Part shown: one piece after another, positions 4,568 through 55,780 of the stretch
Layout: each line of letters begins with the position of its first letter
Position numbering within the stretch: position 1 is the stretch's first letter
Source of the DNA: an uncultured Candidatus Saccharibacteria bacterium
GTDB lineage: Bacteria; Patescibacteriota; Saccharimonadia; Saccharimonadales; JAGQNJ01
Reading direction: 5' to 3'
DNA length: 64,000 bases
Assembly: GCA_964426755.1 (NCBI GenBank)
Contig: CAYRRR010000001.1
Coordinates: 58,946-122,945 of the forward strand
Program-made: the position numbers and the translations under genes
Notes under the pieces: model-generated
Told to the model about the DNA's origin: nothing
The model's database searches: none
The model's input: only the letters and a program-made list of their open reading frames with translations

Positions 4568-7378
4568 ATGAAAGATGTCATCGCGGTTAAGGGAGCGCGT
4601 GAGCACAATCTTAAAGATATATCTTTAGAGATTCCTCGCGACAAGCTAGTGGTCATAACGGGCTTAAGTGGCTCTGGTAAATCGTCATTAGCGTTTGATA
4701 CTATTTACGCTGAAGGCCAACGTCGCTATGTTGAAAGTCTTTCAAGCTACGCGCGGCAGTTTTTGGGTTTAATGGAGAAACCGGATGTTGATCAAATTGA
4801 CGGTCTTTCGCCGGCAATCAGTATTGATCAAAAATCAACCAGCCGTAACCCGCGTTCAACGGTTGCTACTGTGACCGAAATTTATGATTATTTGCGGCTT
4901 TTATTTGCGCGCGTAGGTACACCGCACTGTCCAGTTTGCGGTAAACCGGTAACGCGTCAAACAACCCAGGCAATTGTGGACACTATTATTCGTAACAACA
5001 AAGACGCAAGACTTATTATTCTTGCTCCGGTTGTGATAGACAAAAAGGGTGCTTTTGAGCATGTTCCCGAACAGTACCAGCGTGCCGGCTTTGCTCGCGT
5101 CCGTGTCGACGGTGTAATCTATGCATTAGACGAATTTCCTGAGCTCGATAAAGCTAAAAAACACACAATCGAAATCGTGGCCGATCGTCTTACAAATAAT
5201 AAAGATAATGAAGGACGACTAAGCCAGTCGGTTGAACAGGCGCTGGATATTGCGGACGGTAAGGTTGCGGTTTTAAATGCTGATTCAAACGAAGAGTCTA
5301 TCCATACGCTTATGTACGCGTGTGTTGATCATCCCGATGTGTTGATTCCGGAGCTTGAGCCACGCACGTTTAGTTTTAATAGTCCGCACGGAGCATGCCC
5401 GGTTTGTACGGGACTTGGCTCTCGTTTAGAAGTTGACCCTGATTTAGTGATTCCAAACGGACGCCTAACACTTGCCGAAGGAGCTATCAGACCATTTAAC
5501 CGCGTTAATACCGATGCTTGGTACATGAAGAAGCTGCAAGCGGTTGGCGATGCCTATGGTTTTAGTATTCATGAGCAAACCAGCGAAATTTCCGAGGCCA
5601 ATATGGAGCGAATTTTGTACGGAACCGGCAGTCAAACGTATCGAATATCACTGGGGATTGGACGTTCATACCAGACTACCTATGAAGGTGTTATTCCTAA
5701 TCTTGAGCGCCGTCACAAAGAAACCGAGAGTGATTTTATTCGTCGTGACATTGAACGGTTCATGCAGGAACGGCCATGCCATGCCTGTCACGGTAAACGT
5801 TTAAAACCTGAAGTGCTGGCGGTAAAAGTTGATGGCAAATCGATTATGGATATATGTGAATTGTCGATTGATGATGCCGCCAGCTATTTCAATAACTTGA
5901 CCCTTAGCACCACCGAGCTTCATATTGCTGAACAAATTTTAAAAGAAATCTGTGCTCGCTTATCATTTTTACAAGACGTTGGATTAAATTATTTGTCGCT
6001 TCTTAGAAGCGCAACTACGCTGAGCGGCGGCGAGGCGCAGCGTATTCGGCTGGCTACACAGATTGGTTCTGGCTTAATGGGTGTACTATACGTGCTTGAC
6101 GAGCCATCTATTGGTCTGCATCAACGAGATAATGATCGGCTCATTAGAACCCTGAAACACTTACGTGACCTTGGTAATACTGTCATTGTAGTTGAGCACG
6201 ATGAAGATACGATTCGTACTGCTGATTATTTGGTAGACATTGGTCCAGGAGCTGGTATTCATGGCGGGCGAATAGTTGCTCATGGTACACCAGGGCAAGT
6301 GTCTAAAAACAGCAAGAGTATTACCGGTCAGTATCTGCAAGGTAGTAAGCAAATTGCCGTGCCAAAAAGACGACGCGAGGGCAATGGTAAGTTTTTAAGT
6401 GTAAAAGGCGCACGCGAGAACAACCTAAAAAGCATAGATGTTGATATACCGCTCGGTAAGTTAGTGGTTGTAAGCGGAGTGTCTGGTTCTGGTAAATCTA
6501 CTCTCATTAATGACATTTTAGCTAAAGAGCTGTCTGCGCGATTGCACCGAGCTAATGCGGTGCCGGGCAAGCACGATGATATTGAAGGCATTAAGCAGCT
6601 TGATAAAGCCATCATTATAGACCAGTCACCAATTGGTCGAACGCCAAGGTCAAATCCGGCAACTTATACTGGTGTCTTTACACCGATACGAGAACTGTTC
6701 GCAAGCGTACCTGAAGCCAAACTGCGAGGGTATAGCCCCGGGCGTTTTAGCTTTAACGTTAAGGGCGGACGTTGCGAAAACTGTGCTGGCGACGGCATCA
6801 TTAAGATAGAAATGCACTTTTTGCCTGATGTTTATGTGCCATGCGAAGTTTGCAAGGGTAAACGCTATAACCGTGAGGCTCTTGAGATCCATTACAAGGG
6901 TAAGACCATCAGTGATGTACTTGAAATGACCTGCGAAACTGCGCTGGAGTTTTTTGAAAATATTCCAAGCATTGCCCGCAAGCTGCAAACCTTAGTTGAT
7001 GTTGGTCTCGGCTACATAACTTTAGGTCAGCCGGCTACAACCTTGAGTGGTGGCGAGGCACAGCGTATCAAATTAGCCAGTGAGTTATCACGTCGCCCAA
7101 CTGGACGCACCTTGTACATTCTTGATGAGCCGACAACCGGTCTGCATATGGCTGACGTTGATAAGCTGCTCAACGTGTTGCACGCTCTCGTTGATGCTGG
7201 CAATAGTATGATTGTGATTGAGCACAACCTAGATGTTATAAAATCAGCCGATCACATTATCGATATGGGGCCCGATGGCGGACAGAACGGCGGCATGATT
7301 ATTGCTGAAGGTACGCCAGAAATTGTATCAAAAGCTACTAACTCTTACACCGGTCAGTTCTTGAAGCGTTTATTGTAG
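4568..7378 (+). CDS. uvrA: excinuclease ABC subunit A
   Basis: 936 aa. Two ABC modules with Walker A motifs GLSGSGKSS and GVSGSGKST. Signature LSGGEAQR appears twice. Zinc-finger cysteines CPVCG, CPVCTG and CENCAGDG. The N-terminus matches the UvrA consensus. Confidence 0.97.
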
Positions 7379-21556: not shown

Positions 21557-22273
21557 GTGAATGATGAAATAGAACAAAGTCCCTCGTTTGAGCATAGAAA
21601 GCCCGATCCATTAGCAGAAGAGCAATATAAAGATTTCTTTGTCGAGCGGTTAACGCTAGAGGTAGATGATGTTACTGCTTCGTATAGCGTTTATGTATTT
21701 ACGCCTGACGATGAAATGCCTGAAGAAATAGCAGCTTGGCTTCATTATCGCACGATGACAGAGCCGGTGGTCGCAGCTGAGAATGACGGTGATTTTACGC
21801 GATTTAAAAGTACCGAGTATATAAAAGAGCGTTTCTTGCAGGACAAAGGCGGACGCACACTTTACGTTGCTGTAGATGAGGAAAGCGGGTCTATAGATGG
21901 TATTGCGTGGCTTCATCCTCTTCACAACAACCAAGTAGATTACTTGTTGGTGCAAGCTGGCCGCAAGGCACTTGATGATGAAACAATCCTACCTAATGAG
22001 CTCGCAACTATTGCCACTCGAGAATATGGTAGGGCGGTGCGCAAGGATATGTCATTACGGCTTGGCGCGCTTTCAATTGATAAATGTTTCGCAAGCAATG
22101 AAACAACACGAGGGGTTGTCGGTATATTTGGCGATGGCGATAACATAGCATTAGAACTTATAAATTCTGGTAAATTACCACAAGGTACGTCTATGCGAAC
22201 TATTGAAAATGGGCTTGGCTGGGTGATATTGATGGCAATGCGAGACAGGGGCGATGAAGTAACGTATACGTAA
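21557..22273 (+). CDS. hypothetical protein (238 aa; weak GNAT-like beta-strand pattern)
   Basis: Long ORF between two tRNA genes. LYVAVDEESGSIDGIAWL resembles the GNAT beta4 strand, but no clear acetyl-CoA motif was seen. Confidence 0.5.
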   Translation: MNDEIEQSPSFEHRKPDPLAEEQYKDFFVERLTLEVDDVTASYSVYVFTPDDEMPEEIAAWLHYRTMTEPVVAAENDGDFTRFKSTEYIKERFLQDKGGRTLYVAVDEESGSIDGIAWLHPLHNNQVDYLLVQAGRKALDDETILPNELATIATREYGRAVRKDMSLRLGALSIDKCFASNETTRGVVGIFGDGDNIALELINSGKLPQGTSMRTIENGLGWVILMAMRDRGDEVTYT

Positions 22274-22396: not shown

Positions 22397-22406
22397 TACA
22401 AATAGT

Positions 22407-22429
22407 CCATCCGAAAGGATGGGTTTTTT
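22407..22429 (+). terminator. rho-independent terminator after tRNA-Val
   Basis: CCATCC-GAAA-GGATGG hairpin followed by G and T6. The outer TACAAA/TTTGTA pairing extends the stem. Confidence 0.7.
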
Positions 22430-22560
22430 GTATGGGTATTGTCTAGGCTTAGCCTATGATCCCCCGGGTCGGGGTGAGAGCTGCCTGTGGCAGTTTGCAA
22501 GGAAGTCTTCTCTTGAAAGCTTGCTTTCAAAGATGAAGTTTCGGGCCTGTCGAATCTAGG

Positions 22561-22582
22561 TCGAGTCCCTCAGTGTCTACTA
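22561..22582 (+). repeat. decayed direct copy of the tRNA-Val 3' end (T-loop to CCA)
   Basis: TCGAGTCCCTCAGTGTCTACTA versus tRNA TCGAGTCCCTCAGCGCCCACCA. The first 13 nt are identical and the remaining 9 nt differ only by four C-to-T transitions. Confidence 0.7.
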
Positions 22583-23824: not shown

Positions 23825-24000
23825 TAATTGTAATTTCACCCCTGATCCGCTATTATAAGTTTGCCTTATTCTTAATTTAGGGGTCCCCAACTTGAGGGGA
23901 TTCAAGTTGGGAAAAGGTACTGACTATATTTGTTGTATTGTGGTTTTTTGGAAGCTTTGCTTTCAAAAAGCTTCGATATCAAATATTTACGCAGTGATGT

Positions 24001-24076: not shown

Positions 24077-24221
24077 TAAATATTTTGTAACCTTTCGGCT
24101 AGAAAATATTTATCATGTTCACCAAGCGCGAACTGGATAGCTACGAAGCAGCCAGTTCGTTCGTAAGAAACTATCGCAGGAGCTTGCTCCGAGAAAGTTT
24201 AGAAGCGTGCCGAAGGCAGCC

Positions 24222-24237
24222 CTGGAAGGCGCCACCA
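24222..24237 (+). repeat. direct copy of the tRNA-Phe 3' end
   Basis: CTGGAAGGCGCCACCA versus tRNA CTGGGAGGCGCCACCA, 15 of 16 identical. It ends 161 nt after the tRNA 3' end. Confidence 0.75.
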
Positions 24238-24271: not shown

Positions 24272-25666
24272 ATGTCTGAAATTGAGCAACTACGACCAAG
24301 AATAGTCGGTACTGAGCTTGAGTTTGGGGTAGCGTTCGAGTTAAGAGGCGGCTATCGTCATCTAACTTCACCGTACAAACTTTTACTGAATAATATACCG
24401 ACAAATGTTATATCACATCGTAATAATCCAACCTCCAATGATTATTTTTTAGAAAATGGTGGTCGTTATTATCTGGATATGAGACATCATTGGGAGTATG
24501 CGACTCCAGAATGTGCTACTTTTGCTGACGCTGTTACGTATGACATTGCGGGTGAAGATTTTATTTGCGACCATTTTAGCTCACCGCTTGCTCAAGAAAT
24601 TTTCGAAAATGCTGGTATATTTAAGAAAGTTTCTGATCATAGTGAAGGTCAGACGCAGACTGCTGGAGCGCACGAGAACTATCACACGGATAGAATTAAT
24701 CTTGGATTTGAATATAACAGGAAAAAAAGTCTTTTTGTAGCTGGTCTTGCATCTCATCTAATAACTCGCTCGGTTTTTACTGGTGCTGGTTCAGTAGATG
24801 CCGATGGGGTGTTTCATAAAACTCAAAAGTTGCGCACCCTCACACGAACACAAAGCGGAAGCACCACCAGCGACAAGCCCATAGTTAACACACGTATTGA
24901 GTCTCTGGCAGAAGGGGAGCATGAGCGCGTGCATATAATCAGCGGGGATCCAAACATTTCACCGTGGGCTGGATGGATGAAGCTTGGCACCACTAGCCTT
25001 GTTCTGCGATTACTGGAGCATAGTTCATTTCCCATAGAAGCAGTTATTGCTAATGAGCGCATGGTAGAAGCGGCTGTCGCAATAGGCAGTACTGCTGCGC
25101 TTGACACATTGGTTGTCATTGAAGGTGGAAAAAGCGCCACGGCATTAGATGTTCAAGAAATAGTATTTGATGCTGCAGAAGAGCTAGGCAGAAAATATGA
25201 GTTACCACCTGAGGAGTACGCAGTTTTGGGCGAATGGGAAGCCGTAATACAAGATTTACGTCAAGACCCAGAGAGGTGCATGGACAGAATCGATTGGCTT
25301 TCTTGCCGTTACGTTATCGAAAGTGCCGTTAATGCAGAAGAAAGAAAAAAACGAGACCTCGGGTACACTATGCTATACCCCGGTGGTGGTTTTGGACTTA
25401 AACTGAGGGATCGTAGCAGATTTAAGATGACACCTACCAGGGAAGAGATTGTTCGCGCACGAACCACTCCGCCTGCTGACACTCGGGCTGTGCTAAGAGG
25501 AGAGGCTATACGCCAATTTAAAATGAATAATGTAAATGGAGTAATCGGCTGGGATTTTGCGCGTAACGACACTAAGCCTAAAAAAATTGCCAGAATTATG
25601 TTTAATGACCCTTATGACCATGATGTCAGTAGGCTAAATAAGTGGCTTAAGGCTACTCTTAGCTAA
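24272..25666 (+). CDS. Pup ligase / Pup deamidase family protein (PafA/Dop-like carboxylate-amine ligase)
   Basis: 464 aa with family blocks in canonical order: RIVGTELEFG, ENGGRYYLDMRHHWEYATPEC, GAHENY, PIVNTR, RVHIISGDPNIS, MKLGTTSLVLRLLE, ATALDVQ, IDWL and TPPADTRAVLRGEAI. No SD seen. Confidence 0.82.
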   Translation: MSEIEQLRPRIVGTELEFGVAFELRGGYRHLTSPYKLLLNNIPTNVISHRNNPTSNDYFLENGGRYYLDMRHHWEYATPECATFADAVTYDIAGEDFICDHFSSPLAQEIFENAGIFKKVSDHSEGQTQTAGAHENYHTDRINLGFEYNRKKSLFVAGLASHLITRSVFTGAGSVDADGVFHKTQKLRTLTRTQSGSTTSDKPIVNTRIESLAEGEHERVHIISGDPNISPWAGWMKLGTTSLVLRLLEHSSFPIEAVIANERMVEAAVAIGSTAALDTLVVIEGGKSATALDVQEIVFDAAEELGRKYELPPEEYAVLGEWEAVIQDLRQDPERCMDRIDWLSCRYVIESAVNAEERKKRDLGYTMLYPGGGFGLKLRDRSRFKMTPTREEIVRARTTPPADTRAVLRGEAIRQFKMNNVNGVIGWDFARNDTKPKKIARIMFNDPYDHDVSRLNKWLKATLS

Positions 25667-45555: not shown

Positions 45556-48432
45556 ATGAAGCGATATAATCCAAAAGAAATTGAACCCAAATGGCAACAG
45601 GCATGGGAAGAGGCGGGTATTTACTCGGCTACTGAAAATTCTCATAAGCCAAAAAAATATATTCTAGAGTATTTTCCGTATCCCAGTGGTGCTGCTATGC
45701 ACGTTGGGCATGTGCGTAACTATACTATTGGTGATGCGACCGCGCGCTTCAATCGTATGCGCGGTTATAATGTACTGCATCCGATGGGGTGGGATGCGTT
45801 TGGTTTGCCTGCGGAAAATTACGCACTTAAAACTGGTATTACTCCTCGTAAAGCAATCGATGAAAATACAGCGCGTTTTAAGCGACAACTTGTGCAAATG
45901 GGGTTTGGCTACGATTGGTCGCGCGAGATAGACAGTACGGATCCTGCTTACTATAAATGGACACAGTGGTTCTTTTTGTTGCTTTATAAAAAAGGCTTGG
46001 CGTATCAGCAAGAAAGTTTGCAGTGGTGGTGTCCGGTCGACAAAACGGTATTGGCCAACGAGCAGGTAGAAGCCGGTAAGTGTTGGCGTTGCGGTAATGA
46101 TGTTGAGAAAAAAGCGCTCAAACAGTGGTTTTTTAAGATAACTGACTACGCCGATCGGTTATTGACAGATCTGGATGATCTTGACTGGTCTGATGCAATT
46201 AAAGCAATGCAGCGCAATTGGATTGGCAAAAGTAAAGGTGCTGAAATTGATTTTAATATCAACGGTTCTGACGAGCTTATAAAAGTGTTTACGACTCGTC
46301 CAGATACCTTATTTGGTGTAACCTTTATGGTTCTGGCTCCAGAGCATCATATTGTAAAAAGTATTACTACCAAAGATCAAAAGAATGCGGTCGAAAACTA
46401 CATCAAACAAGCACAAAATAAAAGTGATATTGAGCGTCAGGAGACGGCAGCGGAGCAAAAAACGGGCGTATTCACTGGCGCGTATGCTATTAACCCGGTT
46501 AATAATGAAAAGATTCCTATTTGGATTGCCGATTATGTATTGATGGGCTATGGTACAGGCGCTATTATGGCCGTCCCCGCTCATGATCAACGAGATTATG
46601 AGTTCGCAAAAGCATTTAATTTACCAGTAAAGTTTGTAGTTGAACCAACTTTTGGACAAGCGCAGGGCGATGATATGTATAAGAAATCGATTTTTGTGGT
46701 TTTGCGCAATCCTACAACAAACCAGATTATTGTCTTAGATTGGGGTCCGCGCCAAGAACGACACGGCGGTAACATGTTGATTGGTGGTGGTGTAGAGGAT
46801 GGTGAAAGTTATCAGATAGCAGCCGAGCGTGAAATTGTCGAAGAAACAGGCTATAAGAACTTTAAATTTGTTAAAGAAGCCGAGTTTTCTGGCCACGGCT
46901 TTTTTTACTCAAATACTAAAAATAAGAATATGAATGTTTCTGGCAAAGGGTTGCTATTCGATCTCATAGACGAAGAAAAAGCTTCTACAAATCTGGATGA
47001 AGGTGAAAAGAACAAGTTTAAAGTCACATGGCAGCCTGCTGATGCCGTAGCTGCTATGTTGCATGATGGTAACCACGAGGCCTTTTATCGGTATCTCGTG
47101 CTCAATGAAGTTTATAGTGGCGAAGGAGTTATGATTAACTCTGGTGAGTATAATGGCATGTCGTCTGCTGAAGTACGCAATAAAATCATCGCTGATTTAC
47201 AAGCGAAAGGTTTAGCGCAAGAAAAAGTCAATTTTAAAATGCGCGATTGGCTCATAAGTCGCCAACGTTATTGGGGTGCACCGATACCAATGATCCATTG
47301 TCAACAATGCGGTATCGTGCCAGTACCCGAAGATCAATTACCGGTAAAGCTACCCGAACTTTCAAAGTTTGAACCGAGTGGCGATGGCCGCAGCCCTTTA
47401 GCTAACGTGCCCGACTTTGTAAATACGACATGTCCTCAATGTGGTGGCAAAGCCGAGCGCGAAACTGATACGATGGATGGCTTTGCGTGCAGCAGTTGGT
47501 ATTTCTTGCGTTTCGCTGATCCGCATAATGATACCGCTGCTTTCTCTGAAGATAAAGTAGAGTTTTGGTTACCAGTTGATGATTATATTGGCGGCGCAGA
47601 GCATGCCGTCATGCATCTTTTGTATGCACGCTTTTGGACAAAGGTTATGTACGACGAAGGCTTAATTAACTTTACAGAACCATTCACGAGCTTACGGAAT
47701 CAAGGCATGATTCTAGCCCCAGACGGGTTAAAGATGAGTAAAAGTAAGGGTAATACTATAGAGCCCGATGGTTTAATTGACCAAGGTTACGGTGCAGACT
47801 CTATACGGCTCATGGAGCTGTTTATTGGCCCATGGAACCAATCAGCAAACTGGAGTGTGGAAGGTATGGGAGGGACATTTCGATTTCTGCAGCGGGTGTG
47901 GACGCTTGTGCAAGAGTATATTGCTGCTGGTTCAAAGAATACAGCCGGCAATAAAGAATTAATGGTTCTGTCTCATCAAACAATTGCTAAAGTAAGTAAA
48001 GATCTTGAAGCATTTGGCTTTAATACGGCCATTGCGAGTCTCATGGAGCATGTCAATGCTCTCTATAAAATCAAAGCCAAGGACGGTTTTATGGCTAAAG
48101 AATGGGCAATTACCTTTGAGATACTGTTGAAGTTACTGGCGCCATTCGCACCCCATATTACTGAAGAATTGTGGCAAGATTTAGGTAACGAATCCTCAAT
48201 TCATACAGCTGATTGGCCGATTCACGACGAGAAGTATCTTGTTGCTAAGTCGGCAACGATTGTTGTGCAAGTTAACGGCAAGGTTCGGGCAAATATTCAA
48301 ATCCCAGTTGATAGTTCTCAAGAAACAGTCGAACAGGTCGCAAAAACTGACGAAAAAGTGACAATCTATCTTAAGAACAACCCAAAAAAAGTTATATACG
48401 TACGAAATAAGCTCATCAACTTTGTTGTTTGA
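45556..48432 (+). CDS. leuS: leucine--tRNA ligase with an inserted Nudix hydrolase domain (aa ~363-520)
   Basis: 958 aa. HIGH motif (HVGH), CP1 editing blocks (TTRPDTLFGVTF, GTGAIMAVPAHDQRDYEFA), RDWLISRQRYWGAPIP, and KMSKSK. Extra ~158 aa segment carries the Nudix box GGVEDGESYQIAAEREIVEETGY. Confidence 0.96.
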   Translation: MKRYNPKEIEPKWQQAWEEAGIYSATENSHKPKKYILEYFPYPSGAAMHVGHVRNYTIGDATARFNRMRGYNVLHPMGWDAFGLPAENYALKTGITPRKAIDENTARFKRQLVQMGFGYDWSREIDSTDPAYYKWTQWFFLLLYKKGLAYQQESLQWWCPVDKTVLANEQVEAGKCWRCGNDVEKKALKQWFFKITDYADRLLTDLDDLDWSDAIKAMQRNWIGKSKGAEIDFNINGSDELIKVFTTRPDTLFGVTFMVLAPEHHIVKSITTKDQKNAVENYIKQAQNKSDIERQETAAEQKTGVFTGAYAINPVNNEKIPIWIADYVLMGYGTGAIMAVPAHDQRDYEFAKAFNLPVKFVVEPTFGQAQGDDMYKKSIFVVLRNPTTNQIIVLDWGPRQERHGGNMLIGGGVEDGESYQIAAEREIVEETGYKNFKFVKEAEFSGHGFFYSNTKNKNMNVSGKGLLFDLIDEEKASTNLDEGEKNKFKVTWQPADAVAAMLHDGNHEAFYRYLVLNEVYSGEGVMINSGEYNGMSSAEVRNKIIADLQAKGLAQEKVNFKMRDWLISRQRYWGAPIPMIHCQQCGIVPVPEDQLPVKLPELSKFEPSGDGRSPLANVPDFVNTTCPQCGGKAERETDTMDGFACSSWYFLRFADPHNDTAAFSEDKVEFWLPVDDYIGGAEHAVMHLLYARFWTKVMYDEGLINFTEPFTSLRNQGMILAPDGLKMSKSKGNTIEPDGLIDQGYGADSIRLMELFIGPWNQSANWSVEGMGGTFRFLQRVWTLVQEYIAAGSKNTAGNKELMVLSHQTIAKVSKDLEAFGFNTAIASLMEHVNALYKIKAKDGFMAKEWAITFEILLKLLAPFAPHITEELWQDLGNESSIHTADWPIHDEKYLVAKSATIVVQVNGKVRANIQIPVDSSQETVEQVAKTDEKVTIYLKNNPKKVIYVRNKLINFVV

Positions 48433-55525: not shown

Positions 55526-55547
55526 TGGCTGGGGATGAGGGATTCGA
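55526..55547 (-). repeat. perfect 22-nt direct copy of the tRNA-Gln 3' end (T-loop to CCA)
   Basis: Plus-strand TGGCTGGGGATGAGGGATTCGA at 55526-55547 is identical to 55707-55728, the 3' end of tRNA-Gln. Confidence 0.85.
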
Positions 55548-55675
55548 CTTACCTTCGGCGAGCCCACAACTTTTGCTTTGCAAACAAGTTCGCAAGTGAA
55601 GATTGCTTTGCGACATGTCACCGACATGTTTCACCCCGATCACTTTCGTTCGGGTGTTCAAATTGCTGAGCTAAG

Positions 55676-55699
55676 AAAAAACGAGCCCCGAAGACTCGC
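55676..55699 (-). terminator. rho-independent terminator immediately downstream of tRNA-Gln (minus strand)
   Basis: Minus-strand GCGAGUC-UUCG-GGGCUCG imperfect hairpin followed by U6, which is the A-run at 55676-55681 on the plus strand. Confidence 0.6.
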
Positions 55700-55706
55700 C
55701 TTTTCT

Positions 55707-55780
55707 TGGCTGGGGATGAGGGATTCGAACCCCCGATCATGGGACCAGAACCCACTGCCTTACCGCTTGGCTAATCCCCA
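55707..55780 (-). tRNA. tRNA-Gln (anticodon CTG), CCA encoded
   Basis: The reverse complement folds with acceptor TGGGGAT/ATCCCCA. U1-A72 and G73 are Gln identity elements. Anticodon stem GTGGG/CCCAT with loop TTCTGGT. T arm GGGGG-TTCGAAT-CCCTC. Confidence 0.93.

Follow-up and report, generated by a model that had tools for sequence, protein, structure and literature searches.

The tRNA-Gln locus and its trailing repeat

We analysed a 64,000-nucleotide (nt) stretch of DNA (the window), placed in Candidatus Saccharibacteria by the relatives of its CorA protein, and describe here the DNA that trails its tRNA-Gln gene. ARAGORN recognised eight tRNA genes in the window (Gln-CTG, Val, Phe, Leu-GAG, Gly, Cys, Leu-TAA and Ala). 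The intact tRNA-Gln gene lies among housekeeping genes, including those for CorA, a CBS-domain protein and MgsA, and is followed on its own strand by a unit, hereafter the Gln tail, that ends in a second copy of the 3' end of the tRNA. In a repeat search of the window, positions 55526-55547 were identical to 55707-55728 at all 22 nt, with a spacing of 181 nt, the copy beginning at T55 in the T-loop and ending with the encoded CCA. The initial annotation of this DNA had pointed out the perfect repeat and judged it beyond chance. Both statements were borne out, the probability of an exact 22-nt copy arising by chance within 400 nt being about 2e-11.

Two further units had been reported in the window, and a like layout is indeed present behind tRNA-Val and tRNA-Phe, where the 3' copy starts 164 nt (18 of 22 positions identical) and 145 nt (15 of 16) after the gene, respectively. 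A scan of all eight tRNAs did not find this layout behind Leu-GAG, Gly, Cys, Leu-TAA or Ala. The Gln tail encloses no open reading frame (ORF), as had been stated; two chance ORFs of 52 and 68 amino acids (aa) on the opposite strand merely overlap it. The coordinates of these and other features are collected in Table 1, in which L-numbers denote the metagenomic or relative loci that we compared with the window.

Table 1. Features of the tail units in the window and at related loci; a and b are the two tRNA-derived pieces of a tail, and S is the module between them.
Feature	Location	Strand	Basis or remark
tRNA-Gln(CTG), intact, CCA encoded	55707-55780	minus	ARAGORN; Rfam tRNA model, 60.1 bits
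Terminator-like hairpin and T-run directly after CCA, part of the inserted DNA	55674-55706	minus	sequence; minimum-free-energy fold
Inverted T-arm-like segment AATTTGAACACCCGA	55650-55664	minus	read from sequence
a, TGATCGGGG, copy of tRNA-Gln gene nt 42-50 (variable loop and 5' strand of T-stem)	55634-55642	minus	sequence match
S, 86 nt	55548-55633	minus	covariance model R1, 108 bits, E 8e-35
S, helix P1	55612-55631	minus	followed by junction GCAAA
S, helix P2	55566-55606	minus	
S, helix P3	55546-55564	minus	takes in T55 and C56 of the copy
b, exact 22-nt copy, T55 to CCA (T-loop, 3' strand of T-stem, 3' strand of acceptor, discriminator, CCA)	55526-55547	minus	repeat search
tRNA-Val(TAC) unit: hairpin and T-run, a (GGGTCGGGG), S (22475-22560), decayed 3' copy (22561-22582, 18/22)	22397-22582	plus	R1, 114 bits
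tRNA-Phe(GAA) tail: type B filler with core CAGGAGCTTGCTCCGAGAAAG ... GCCGAAGGC, 3' copy (24222-24237, 15/16)	24077-24237	plus	R1, only 5.8 bits
Dead tRNA-Gln copies upstream of the intact gene	L084 500-930; L087 1090-1260; L015 6800-6990; L011 1859-2011	minus	
Intact tRNA-Gln with leader of about 38 nt and 13-nt trailer	L015 6480-6640; L052 8680-8800; L022 7690-7840	minus	
tRNA-Arg(TCT) with upstream S unit, tail, 432-aa ORF, partial tRNA end GCGGAGTACCA and second near-identical tail	L126 7600-9900	plus	
Cassette starting CGAYTTGCAYC, inserted exactly after the CCA of tRNA-Gln	L004 8853-9611	minus	similar starts in L010 and L028

The tail is a tRNA-Gln fragment split in the T-loop

Read 5' to 3' on the minus strand, the intact tRNA gene is followed by a terminator-like hairpin, an inverted T-arm-like segment, a copy of tRNA nt 42-50, the 86-nt module S and a copy of tRNA nt 53-74. 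The first of the two tRNA-derived pieces was missed by the initial annotation. Because it matches tRNA nt 42-50, the 22-nt repeat is the right half of a split T-arm and goes beyond a mere terminal repeat. Together the two pieces account, in order, for 31 of the 33 nt at the 3' end of tRNA-Gln; the break falls between T54 and T55, and G53 is absent. The Gln tail is the displaced 3' third of a tRNA-Gln copy, its T-loop split at T54/T55 by S.

A terminator had been proposed immediately behind tRNA-Gln, and a hairpin with a T-run does directly follow the CCA, but a terminator scan made no call because the stem is imperfect. Each tail has an equivalent hairpin, and the sequences of these hairpins are unlike that of the terminator found after empty sites (see below). 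In the inverted T-arm-like segment, CACCCGA pairs with TCGGGGTG, and pairing is also possible between ATTTGA and TCGAAT of the 3' copy; the segment is better kept in other tails, as GGGATTCGAACACCCGA in L099 and L164 and as TGGTGGGTG... in L130.

The hairpins inside the tail are no arbitrary set; they belong to a highly conserved 86-nt module that sits exactly at T54/T55 of the partial tRNA copy. Among those named by the initial annotation, ACATGTC-GGT-GACATGT is real and conserved and corresponds to helix P1 of S, whereas AACTTGTTTGC-AAA-GCAAAAGTT is unsupported by covariation, and the family fold has in its place CUUGCGAA/UUUGCAAAG nested within the longer helix P2. Likewise, GCCGAAGG, said to lie about 20 nt upstream of the repeat, is present as the loop region of the conserved hairpin P3 but starts 14 nt before the repeat. 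In read data, the junction ...CCCCAGCCA to TAGTTTCATAACC would mark an empty site, and ...GAAGGTAAG to TCGAATCCCTCATCCCCAGCCAAGAAAAGG a circle.

S folds into a conserved four-way junction

We aligned 56 non-identical copies of S and built from them the covariance model R1. In the consensus fold of these homologues, S and the T-stem together form a four-way junction. P0 is the T-stem itself (G49-G52 with C62-C65), extended by GA:UC and carrying an invariant bulged U; P1 is a hairpin of 8 base pairs (bp); P2 is a long two-part hairpin, frequently capped by a CUUG-type loop; and P3 has a GAA(R) loop and uses T55 and C56 for its final two pairs. Across the 56 homologues 96.5% of cells are paired, compared with 31-49% when the partners are slid, and 27 of the 38 pairs show compensatory changes. 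None of 500 shuffles reached the observed values.

A G.U pair occurs at pair 92-108 in every sequence (56/56), at pair 96-104 in 46 and at pair 10-117 in 37. Because these pairs would be C.A mismatches on the opposite strand, the fold sits on the tRNA-sense strand, and such a strand-specific fold is the behaviour of RNA or of one specific DNA strand. The junction nucleotides GUGA, GCAAGG and GGGC and the GAA of the T-loop are invariant. Where its start was placed correctly, S measures 84-89 nt, with a mode of 86-87; the other lengths given by our script (48 and 91-119) are start-detection errors. S remains intact in copies in which the acceptor part of b has decayed, and it is under purifying selection. 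Only tRNA models of Rfam 15 matched, at gathering as well as permissive thresholds (the unit at E ≤ 10, six loci at E ≤ 0.1). The 86-nt S is a strongly supported and undescribed structured module outside Rfam.

Other tails in the window

With filters off, a search of the window with R1 matched only the Val and Gln tails (scores in Table 1). The S of the Val tail also measures 86 nt and aligns with that of the Gln tail, showing compensatory changes, and the piece before it is as in tRNA-Val. Two of its P3 pairs are broken, and the Val tail looks older than the Gln tail. Separately, a 238-aa ORF without a Pfam match (21557-22273, plus strand) begins 38 nt after tRNA-Leu(GAG), stops shortly ahead of tRNA-Val and is possibly an accessory cassette at the end of a tRNA gene.

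The Phe tail contains a second family of filler, type B, with relatives in L029, L122, L130, L181, L184 and L191. Its junctions are shifted, the left flank retaining CCAGTTCG and the right flank beginning at the 3' strand of the T-stem. Upstream of tRNA-Phe, the region 23880-23975 (plus strand) contains a T-arm-like, perfect 10-bp palindrome, CCCAACTTGA GGGG ATTCAAGTTGGG, and a hairpin within the region (23944-23967, plus strand) shares 75% identity with P2 of the Val tail. The region may be a decayed upstream unit of the kind described below.

S occurs behind many tRNAs in Saccharibacteria

A metagenome scan with a pattern taken from the 3' part of S returned 111 loci; inspecting the flanks by eye, we put about one fifth of them down to chance matching of unrelated coding DNA. 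Distinct tails that adjoin a tRNA called by ARAGORN number at least 44, the units being 175-198 nt long (median 186) apart from two outliers of 227 and 240 nt. S stands behind tRNA-Gln (CTG, TTG), Val, Arg (TCT, TCG), Glu (TTC, CTC), Lys (CTT, TTT), Ala and Tyr, at least 11 isoacceptors in all. The initial annotation had expected related copies elsewhere, and the window itself holds two tails of type A and one of type B beside those in the metagenomes. In 19 of the 44 tails the copy of the tRNA's own end is perfect (22/22), and over the 10 nt preceding S the agreement with the unit's own tRNA is 8.2 of 10 positions, compared with 5.6 of 10 for other isotypes (29 tails, lineage-specific variants included). 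Since S is matched to its own tRNA on both sides, and at many tRNAs, its flanks derive from the host tRNA. S itself showed no signal of clustering by tRNA type or by genome, and no tail lacking S was found in this sample, itself selected by the S pattern.

When R1 was applied to 1.29 Mb of Saccharibacteria DNA picked by CorA synteny only, all 11 matches fell at tRNA-Gln loci; 10 directly adjoin the gene, and that of L022 lies 4.4 kb downstream. Among 80 CorA-syntenic loci of species representatives, a homologous tail follows tRNA-Gln in L004, L011, L035, L064 and L076, other fillers follow it in L016, L029 and L032, and many loci are tail-free. S is present at about one third of 29 tRNA-Gln loci. 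The arrangement is not identical in all relatives, and presence and absence vary among related Saccharibacteria. One unit is chimeric (L166 1308-1449, minus strand), with a Gln-type left flank, GTGATCGGGG, followed by S and a right flank equal to the 3' end of tRNA-Lys(TTT), a sign that S copies of different tRNA loci may have recombined. Our literature searches found no description of tRNA-split units of this sort.

Empty sites and the age of the insertion

In L025 and L079 the end of tRNA-Gln is directly followed by a terminator beginning AGCATAAGCAC..., as in an empty site, and the same terminator follows the 3' copy of the tail in L011, L087 and L160, with 87-100% identity over 31-60 nt. 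A search of relatives for tRNA-Gln without the tail, which the initial annotation had proposed, therefore yielded sites that look empty, and by this comparison the unit was inserted, with duplication of 22 nt.

The tail had also been described as the best preserved of the three tail units and read as a miniature element. That it is a recent or the best preserved element of this kind in the genome was not supported. L004, the closest species (in tblastn its CorA protein is 93% identical; corA gene 80% identical in nucleotides), carries the same Gln tail at 75% identity, displaced from the tRNA by a later insertion of about 780 nt that holds an ORF of about 240 aa and ends in GCTCAGCCA, and the tail in the window therefore predates the split of the two species. 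Compared over six species, identity to the tail in the window is 77-79% in five (L004, L011, L035, L064 and L076) and 74% in L022; across the same species the nucleotide identity of CorA drops from 80% to about 67%.

Upstream units, dead copies and stacking

S also lies directly upstream of intact tRNA genes. In these upstream units a promoter-like TATAAT is followed by tRNA positions 1-53, S, TCGAATCC and a short spacer, which often contains an inverted half T-arm; tRNA-derived sequence ends within 8 nt after S. Such units are present in one to three copies, and their degeneracy grows with distance from the gene (L084, L087, L015, L011, L126 and L186).

In the dead tRNA-Gln copies upstream of the intact gene (Table 1), the acceptor stem, D-loop or T-loop houses related modules, named S2 and S3. 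These begin with TGAGA, continue with a hairpin and then GCAAGGCCGGAA (GCAAGG), and contain GAGGCGGGGTC; neither matched Rfam. The downstream S-split tRNA-Gln of L022 is degenerate although full-length; TetR, SDR and hydrolase genes, and no integrase gene, separate it from the intact gene. Two independent S-split tRNA-Gln-like copies, in L022 (3160-3310, minus strand) and L187 (about 5950-6120, plus strand), have a CTA (amber-reading) anticodon in place of CTG, which could reflect decay or hint at suppressor tRNAs.

At three loci the tRNA-Gln gene itself looks like an inserted cassette (L015, L052 and L022; Table 1). Within its leader, the junction at the tRNA's own 3' end recurs in inverted orientation. 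The intact gene of L015 and L052 stands inside the T-arm of an older S-split tRNA-Gln, bounded by a 7-bp duplication, GAATCCC, of which the right-hand copy alone is preserved in L022. The old 5' and 3' pieces in L015 correspond to a tRNA-Gln allele different from the intact gene. As read from these sequences, the duplication suggests site-specific recombination in T-loops in this phylum. Finally, modules stack or duplicate at one tRNA in the tRNA-Arg locus of L126, and the cassette that starts CGAYTTGCAYC, found in three species, contains an ORF of 236-252 aa, depending on the choice of start, without a Pfam match; in L004 it stops immediately ahead of the old tail.

Search for a recombinase, a free form or cargo

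The Gln tail encloses no integrase or other cargo, in agreement with the initial annotation, and no recombinase lies nearby. Among the window ORFs scanned, which gave housekeeping matches or no Pfam match, we found no integrase, transposase, reverse transcriptase or TnpB; the scan covered nearly all larger ORFs and left out a few of at least 120 aa near 61-63.5 kb. Over 93 loci, the 4 kb around S showed no recurrent protein family. In IMG/VR, two S patterns gave 0 and 5 matches, all five of which R1 rejected as chance, and neither GenBank phages nor PLSDB plasmids contained a match to S. A promoter scan recognised none for the unit.

Discussion

How the tails could arise

The reading that we favour, at about an even chance, is that the tails are left by a non-coding module of insertion-duplication, one that splits T-loops and persists only where the tRNA fragment is dispensable. 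DNA carrying an S-split T-arm would recombine with an intact tRNA gene on one side of S, giving a Campbell-type insertion-duplication. If the crossover fell in the 22-nt 3' homology, it would leave the intact tRNA, a new terminator and then a-S-b, that is, a tail. A crossover in the 5' homology would leave the old promoter with positions 1-53, S, and then a new promoter with the intact tRNA, that is, an upstream unit. Either crossover would regenerate an intact tRNA, with the S-bearing fragment staying beside it. Replacement of the whole gene by an S-split allele would destroy an essential tRNA, which would explain the restriction of S to dispensable fragments. The enzyme would be supplied in trans, possibly as a T-loop-specific tyrosine recombinase or as host homologous recombination, perhaps acting after natural transformation, and S would be a structured RNA, co-transcribed with the tRNA or read through from it, that serves the persistence or spread of the element. 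Such a scheme would account for a repeat boundary at exactly T55, for fragments lying beside an intact gene, for host-specific flanks and for the polarity of decay.

Several observations weigh against this proposal. No recombinase has been identified anywhere, and 22 nt is short for RecA-dependent recombination. The scheme leaves the inverted T-arm segment and the missing G53 unexplained. The AGCATAAGCAC terminator also follows the tRNA-Arg tail in L126, where it opens the cassette with the 432-aa ORF; it may therefore itself be modular, which weakens the argument from empty sites. The frequencies of fragments lacking S are biased, because loci entered the metagenome sample through a pattern inside S. 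Finally, the strong conservation of S fits an RNA that benefits the host equally well.

A further possibility, which we advance tentatively, is that S and its relatives S2 and type B form a new class of mobile element, a small structured RNA homing specifically to the elbow loops of tRNA (the T-loop at 54/55, sometimes the D-loop). Such an element might bring its own catalysis, through ribozyme-like cleavage and ligation or through reverse insertion, or S might serve, as a folded single strand, as the recombination site in an integron-like cassette system on the tRNA genes of Saccharibacteria.

A possible host-beneficial RNA

S might instead belong to a non-coding RNA of benefit to the host, with a tRNA-like T-stem and the 3' end of tRNA-Gln, that acts as a decoy or sponge for enzymes or toxins recognising the T-arm or CCA, or as an element in the processing or stability of the tRNA transcript. 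We consider this unlikely, although much about S is in keeping with it: across distant species S is more conserved than the neighbouring protein gene, its structure is kept on the sense strand, retention of the unit goes back beyond the separation of the window's species from L004, and the invariant unpaired junction nucleotides of the modelled fold suggest a tertiary fold or binding site. However, the unit lies behind a terminator-like hairpin with no promoter found in the scan, its presence is patchy even at the tRNA-Gln locus, and the same position holds several kinds of filler that are unrelated to one another (types A, B and others). In many copies the acceptor and CCA portion is free to decay. 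Nor is the complement of the acceptor strand conserved, which means that no tRNA-like minihelix is maintained. We rejected a mimic of a tRNA minihelix on the same ground, the complement being unconserved in the window and in most tails.

A possible scar of an integrating element

The closest known kind of sequence is the tRNA gene fragment left by integrating elements; the core module is undescribed. Integrase-mediated integration of islands and prophages leaves tRNA gene fragments as attR/attL repeats (Reiter 1989 and Williams 2002, as cited in PMC9897764), and an ordinary attachment (att) scar would here mean that an integrase island or prophage entered the T-loop of tRNA-Gln and was later deleted, leaving attL and attR fused, with S as an attP arm carrying protein-binding palindromes. 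An identity block from the T-loop to CCA is the classical pattern of tRNA-integrating elements (Williams 2002, as cited in PMC9897764). Further likenesses to this kind are a regenerated gene that gains a new terminator, occupied and empty sites among relatives, and stacking of later insertions next to the tRNA. In our loci the regenerated tRNA likewise has its own terminator, modules stack at tRNA 3' ends with later ones nearest the tRNA (L004, L022 and L126), and a 7-bp core is duplicated in the T-loop of L015 and L052.

Unlike such fragments, the present units have no integrase, no cargo and no free form that we found, are split by a structured module, and include 5' fragments as well. The 44 independent tails are of near-uniform length, about 180 nt (175-198 nt), and never hold cargo. 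S has RNA-type covariation, stable tetraloops and strand-specific G.U pairs and lacks conserved half-sites; no true copy of it was present in the viral, phage and plasmid collections searched, and no integrase lies nearby. S is also fused to 5' parts of tRNA upstream of the gene, and its position there, joined to 1-53, is not predicted by a simple 3'-end attachment-site model. We therefore regard an att scar as improbable.

The alternative of an intron or split tRNA

Introns are found in the D- and T-loops of archaeal and red-algal tRNAs, and S resembles tRNA introns in being a structured insert at one fixed position of a tRNA loop, in several tRNA species, with exon (T-stem) sequence in its closing helix. 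It is flanked by a U before and ends in a G, as group I introns are, and related modules occur in the D-loop and acceptor stem. Bacterial group I introns interrupt tRNA anticodon loops, including position 35/36 in Patescibacteria, a group rich in them (PMC13011429). If S were removed at the RNA level, the fragments would be halves of functional genes. However, when S was removed in silico, ARAGORN found a tRNA in only 5 of 98 copies; two of these (L022 and L187) carry the CTA anticodon, that of L022 being visibly degenerate, and several are 3'-truncated units of arrays. On this result S is not an intron of working genes, and we rejected the group I intron and split-tRNA reading, to which we attach very little probability. 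Contig ends aside, an intact tRNA of the same kind was present near every tail or array examined, usually adjacent (4.4 kb away in L022). In contrast to known introns, the host copy is a fragment or pseudogene beside an intact, intron-less gene. No Rfam intron model matched even at E ≤ 10, no group I core is present, and 86 nt is far below any known self-splicing core. The copy in the window lacks tRNA nt 1-41, and precise excision would not restore its T-arm because one G of the T-stem is missing.

A tRNA disruption model has been proposed for Caldiarchaeum, an archaeal case with a recombinase-encoding element of 1.8 kb and functional intron-containing genes (PMC3293823). There, too, fragments and inserts arise together at one locus by integration and recombination, and populations differ; our loci, in contrast, have no linked recombinase, and the split copies are non-functional.

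Miniature elements, rejected candidates and artefact

Bacteria have short repeats resembling miniature inverted-repeat transposable elements (MITEs), such as Correia/NEMIS, REP/BIME and the palindrome-associated transposable elements (PATEs) of IS200/IS605. These are, like our units, short, non-coding and multi-copy, with hairpins and inverted terminal similarity (in our units an inverted T-arm segment facing the direct T-arm), and they are mobilised in trans, as ours would be. Unlike them, the present units lie at tRNA genes only, take their flanks from the host tRNA (the 9-nt and 22-nt copies) in place of short target duplications, have no matching transposase that we found and possess a far more conserved core. 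A PATE, or an omega-RNA-like scaffold of TnpB with the 22 nt as guide, was rejected in view of the lack of tnpA and tnpB, of any match to the omega-RNA and HEARO models of Rfam, and of a tRNA-matching 3' segment in upstream units. We also rejected a target-site duplication of the T-stem by S, since in P3 the 3' strand changes in step with the 5' strand of the same helix and not with tRNA type, and pairs of S acting like long terminal repeats around an intact tRNA, since upstream and downstream S within one locus differ in P2 (L126 and L087).

That the repeat is a chance match or an assembly artefact is next to inconceivable: although contigs L001-L003, retrieved from Logan by exact-protein look-ups and from the same population, all end within the T-arm of tRNA-Gln and are uninformative on excision, two of them (L002 and L003) independently span the whole tail, differing by a single-nucleotide polymorphism (AGCACAGC vs. 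AGCTCAGC), and homologous units recur in dozens of independent assemblies.

Significance

Saccharibacteria and other Patescibacteria have tiny genomes in which few mobile elements are expected. Units of this kind are nevertheless carried by three of the eight tRNA genes of the window and by up to about half of the sampled tRNA-Gln loci, S being present at about one third of these loci and other fillers and short scars making up the rest. With 27 covarying pairs and no entry in Rfam, S is among the best-supported unannotated RNA structures. Even on a conservative view, the units call for recognition: they create false tRNA fragments in annotation and mark hotspots for the insertion of accessory genes. 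If S were an autonomous T-loop homing device, acting at the level of RNA or single-stranded DNA, it would constitute a new kind of mobile element, and it would offer an experimental route to the splitting, interruption and duplication of tRNA genes, so far studied mainly in archaea.

Other features of the window

Two protein genes away from the Gln tail deserve mention. The leucyl-tRNA synthetase at 45556-48432 (plus strand) has a NUDIX domain (residues 375-511) directly after its editing domain (residues 220-372). Between tRNA-Phe and tRNA-Gly, the window of this Saccharibacterium also encodes a protein of the Pup-ligase family (24272-25666, plus strand; Pfam E 4e-75).

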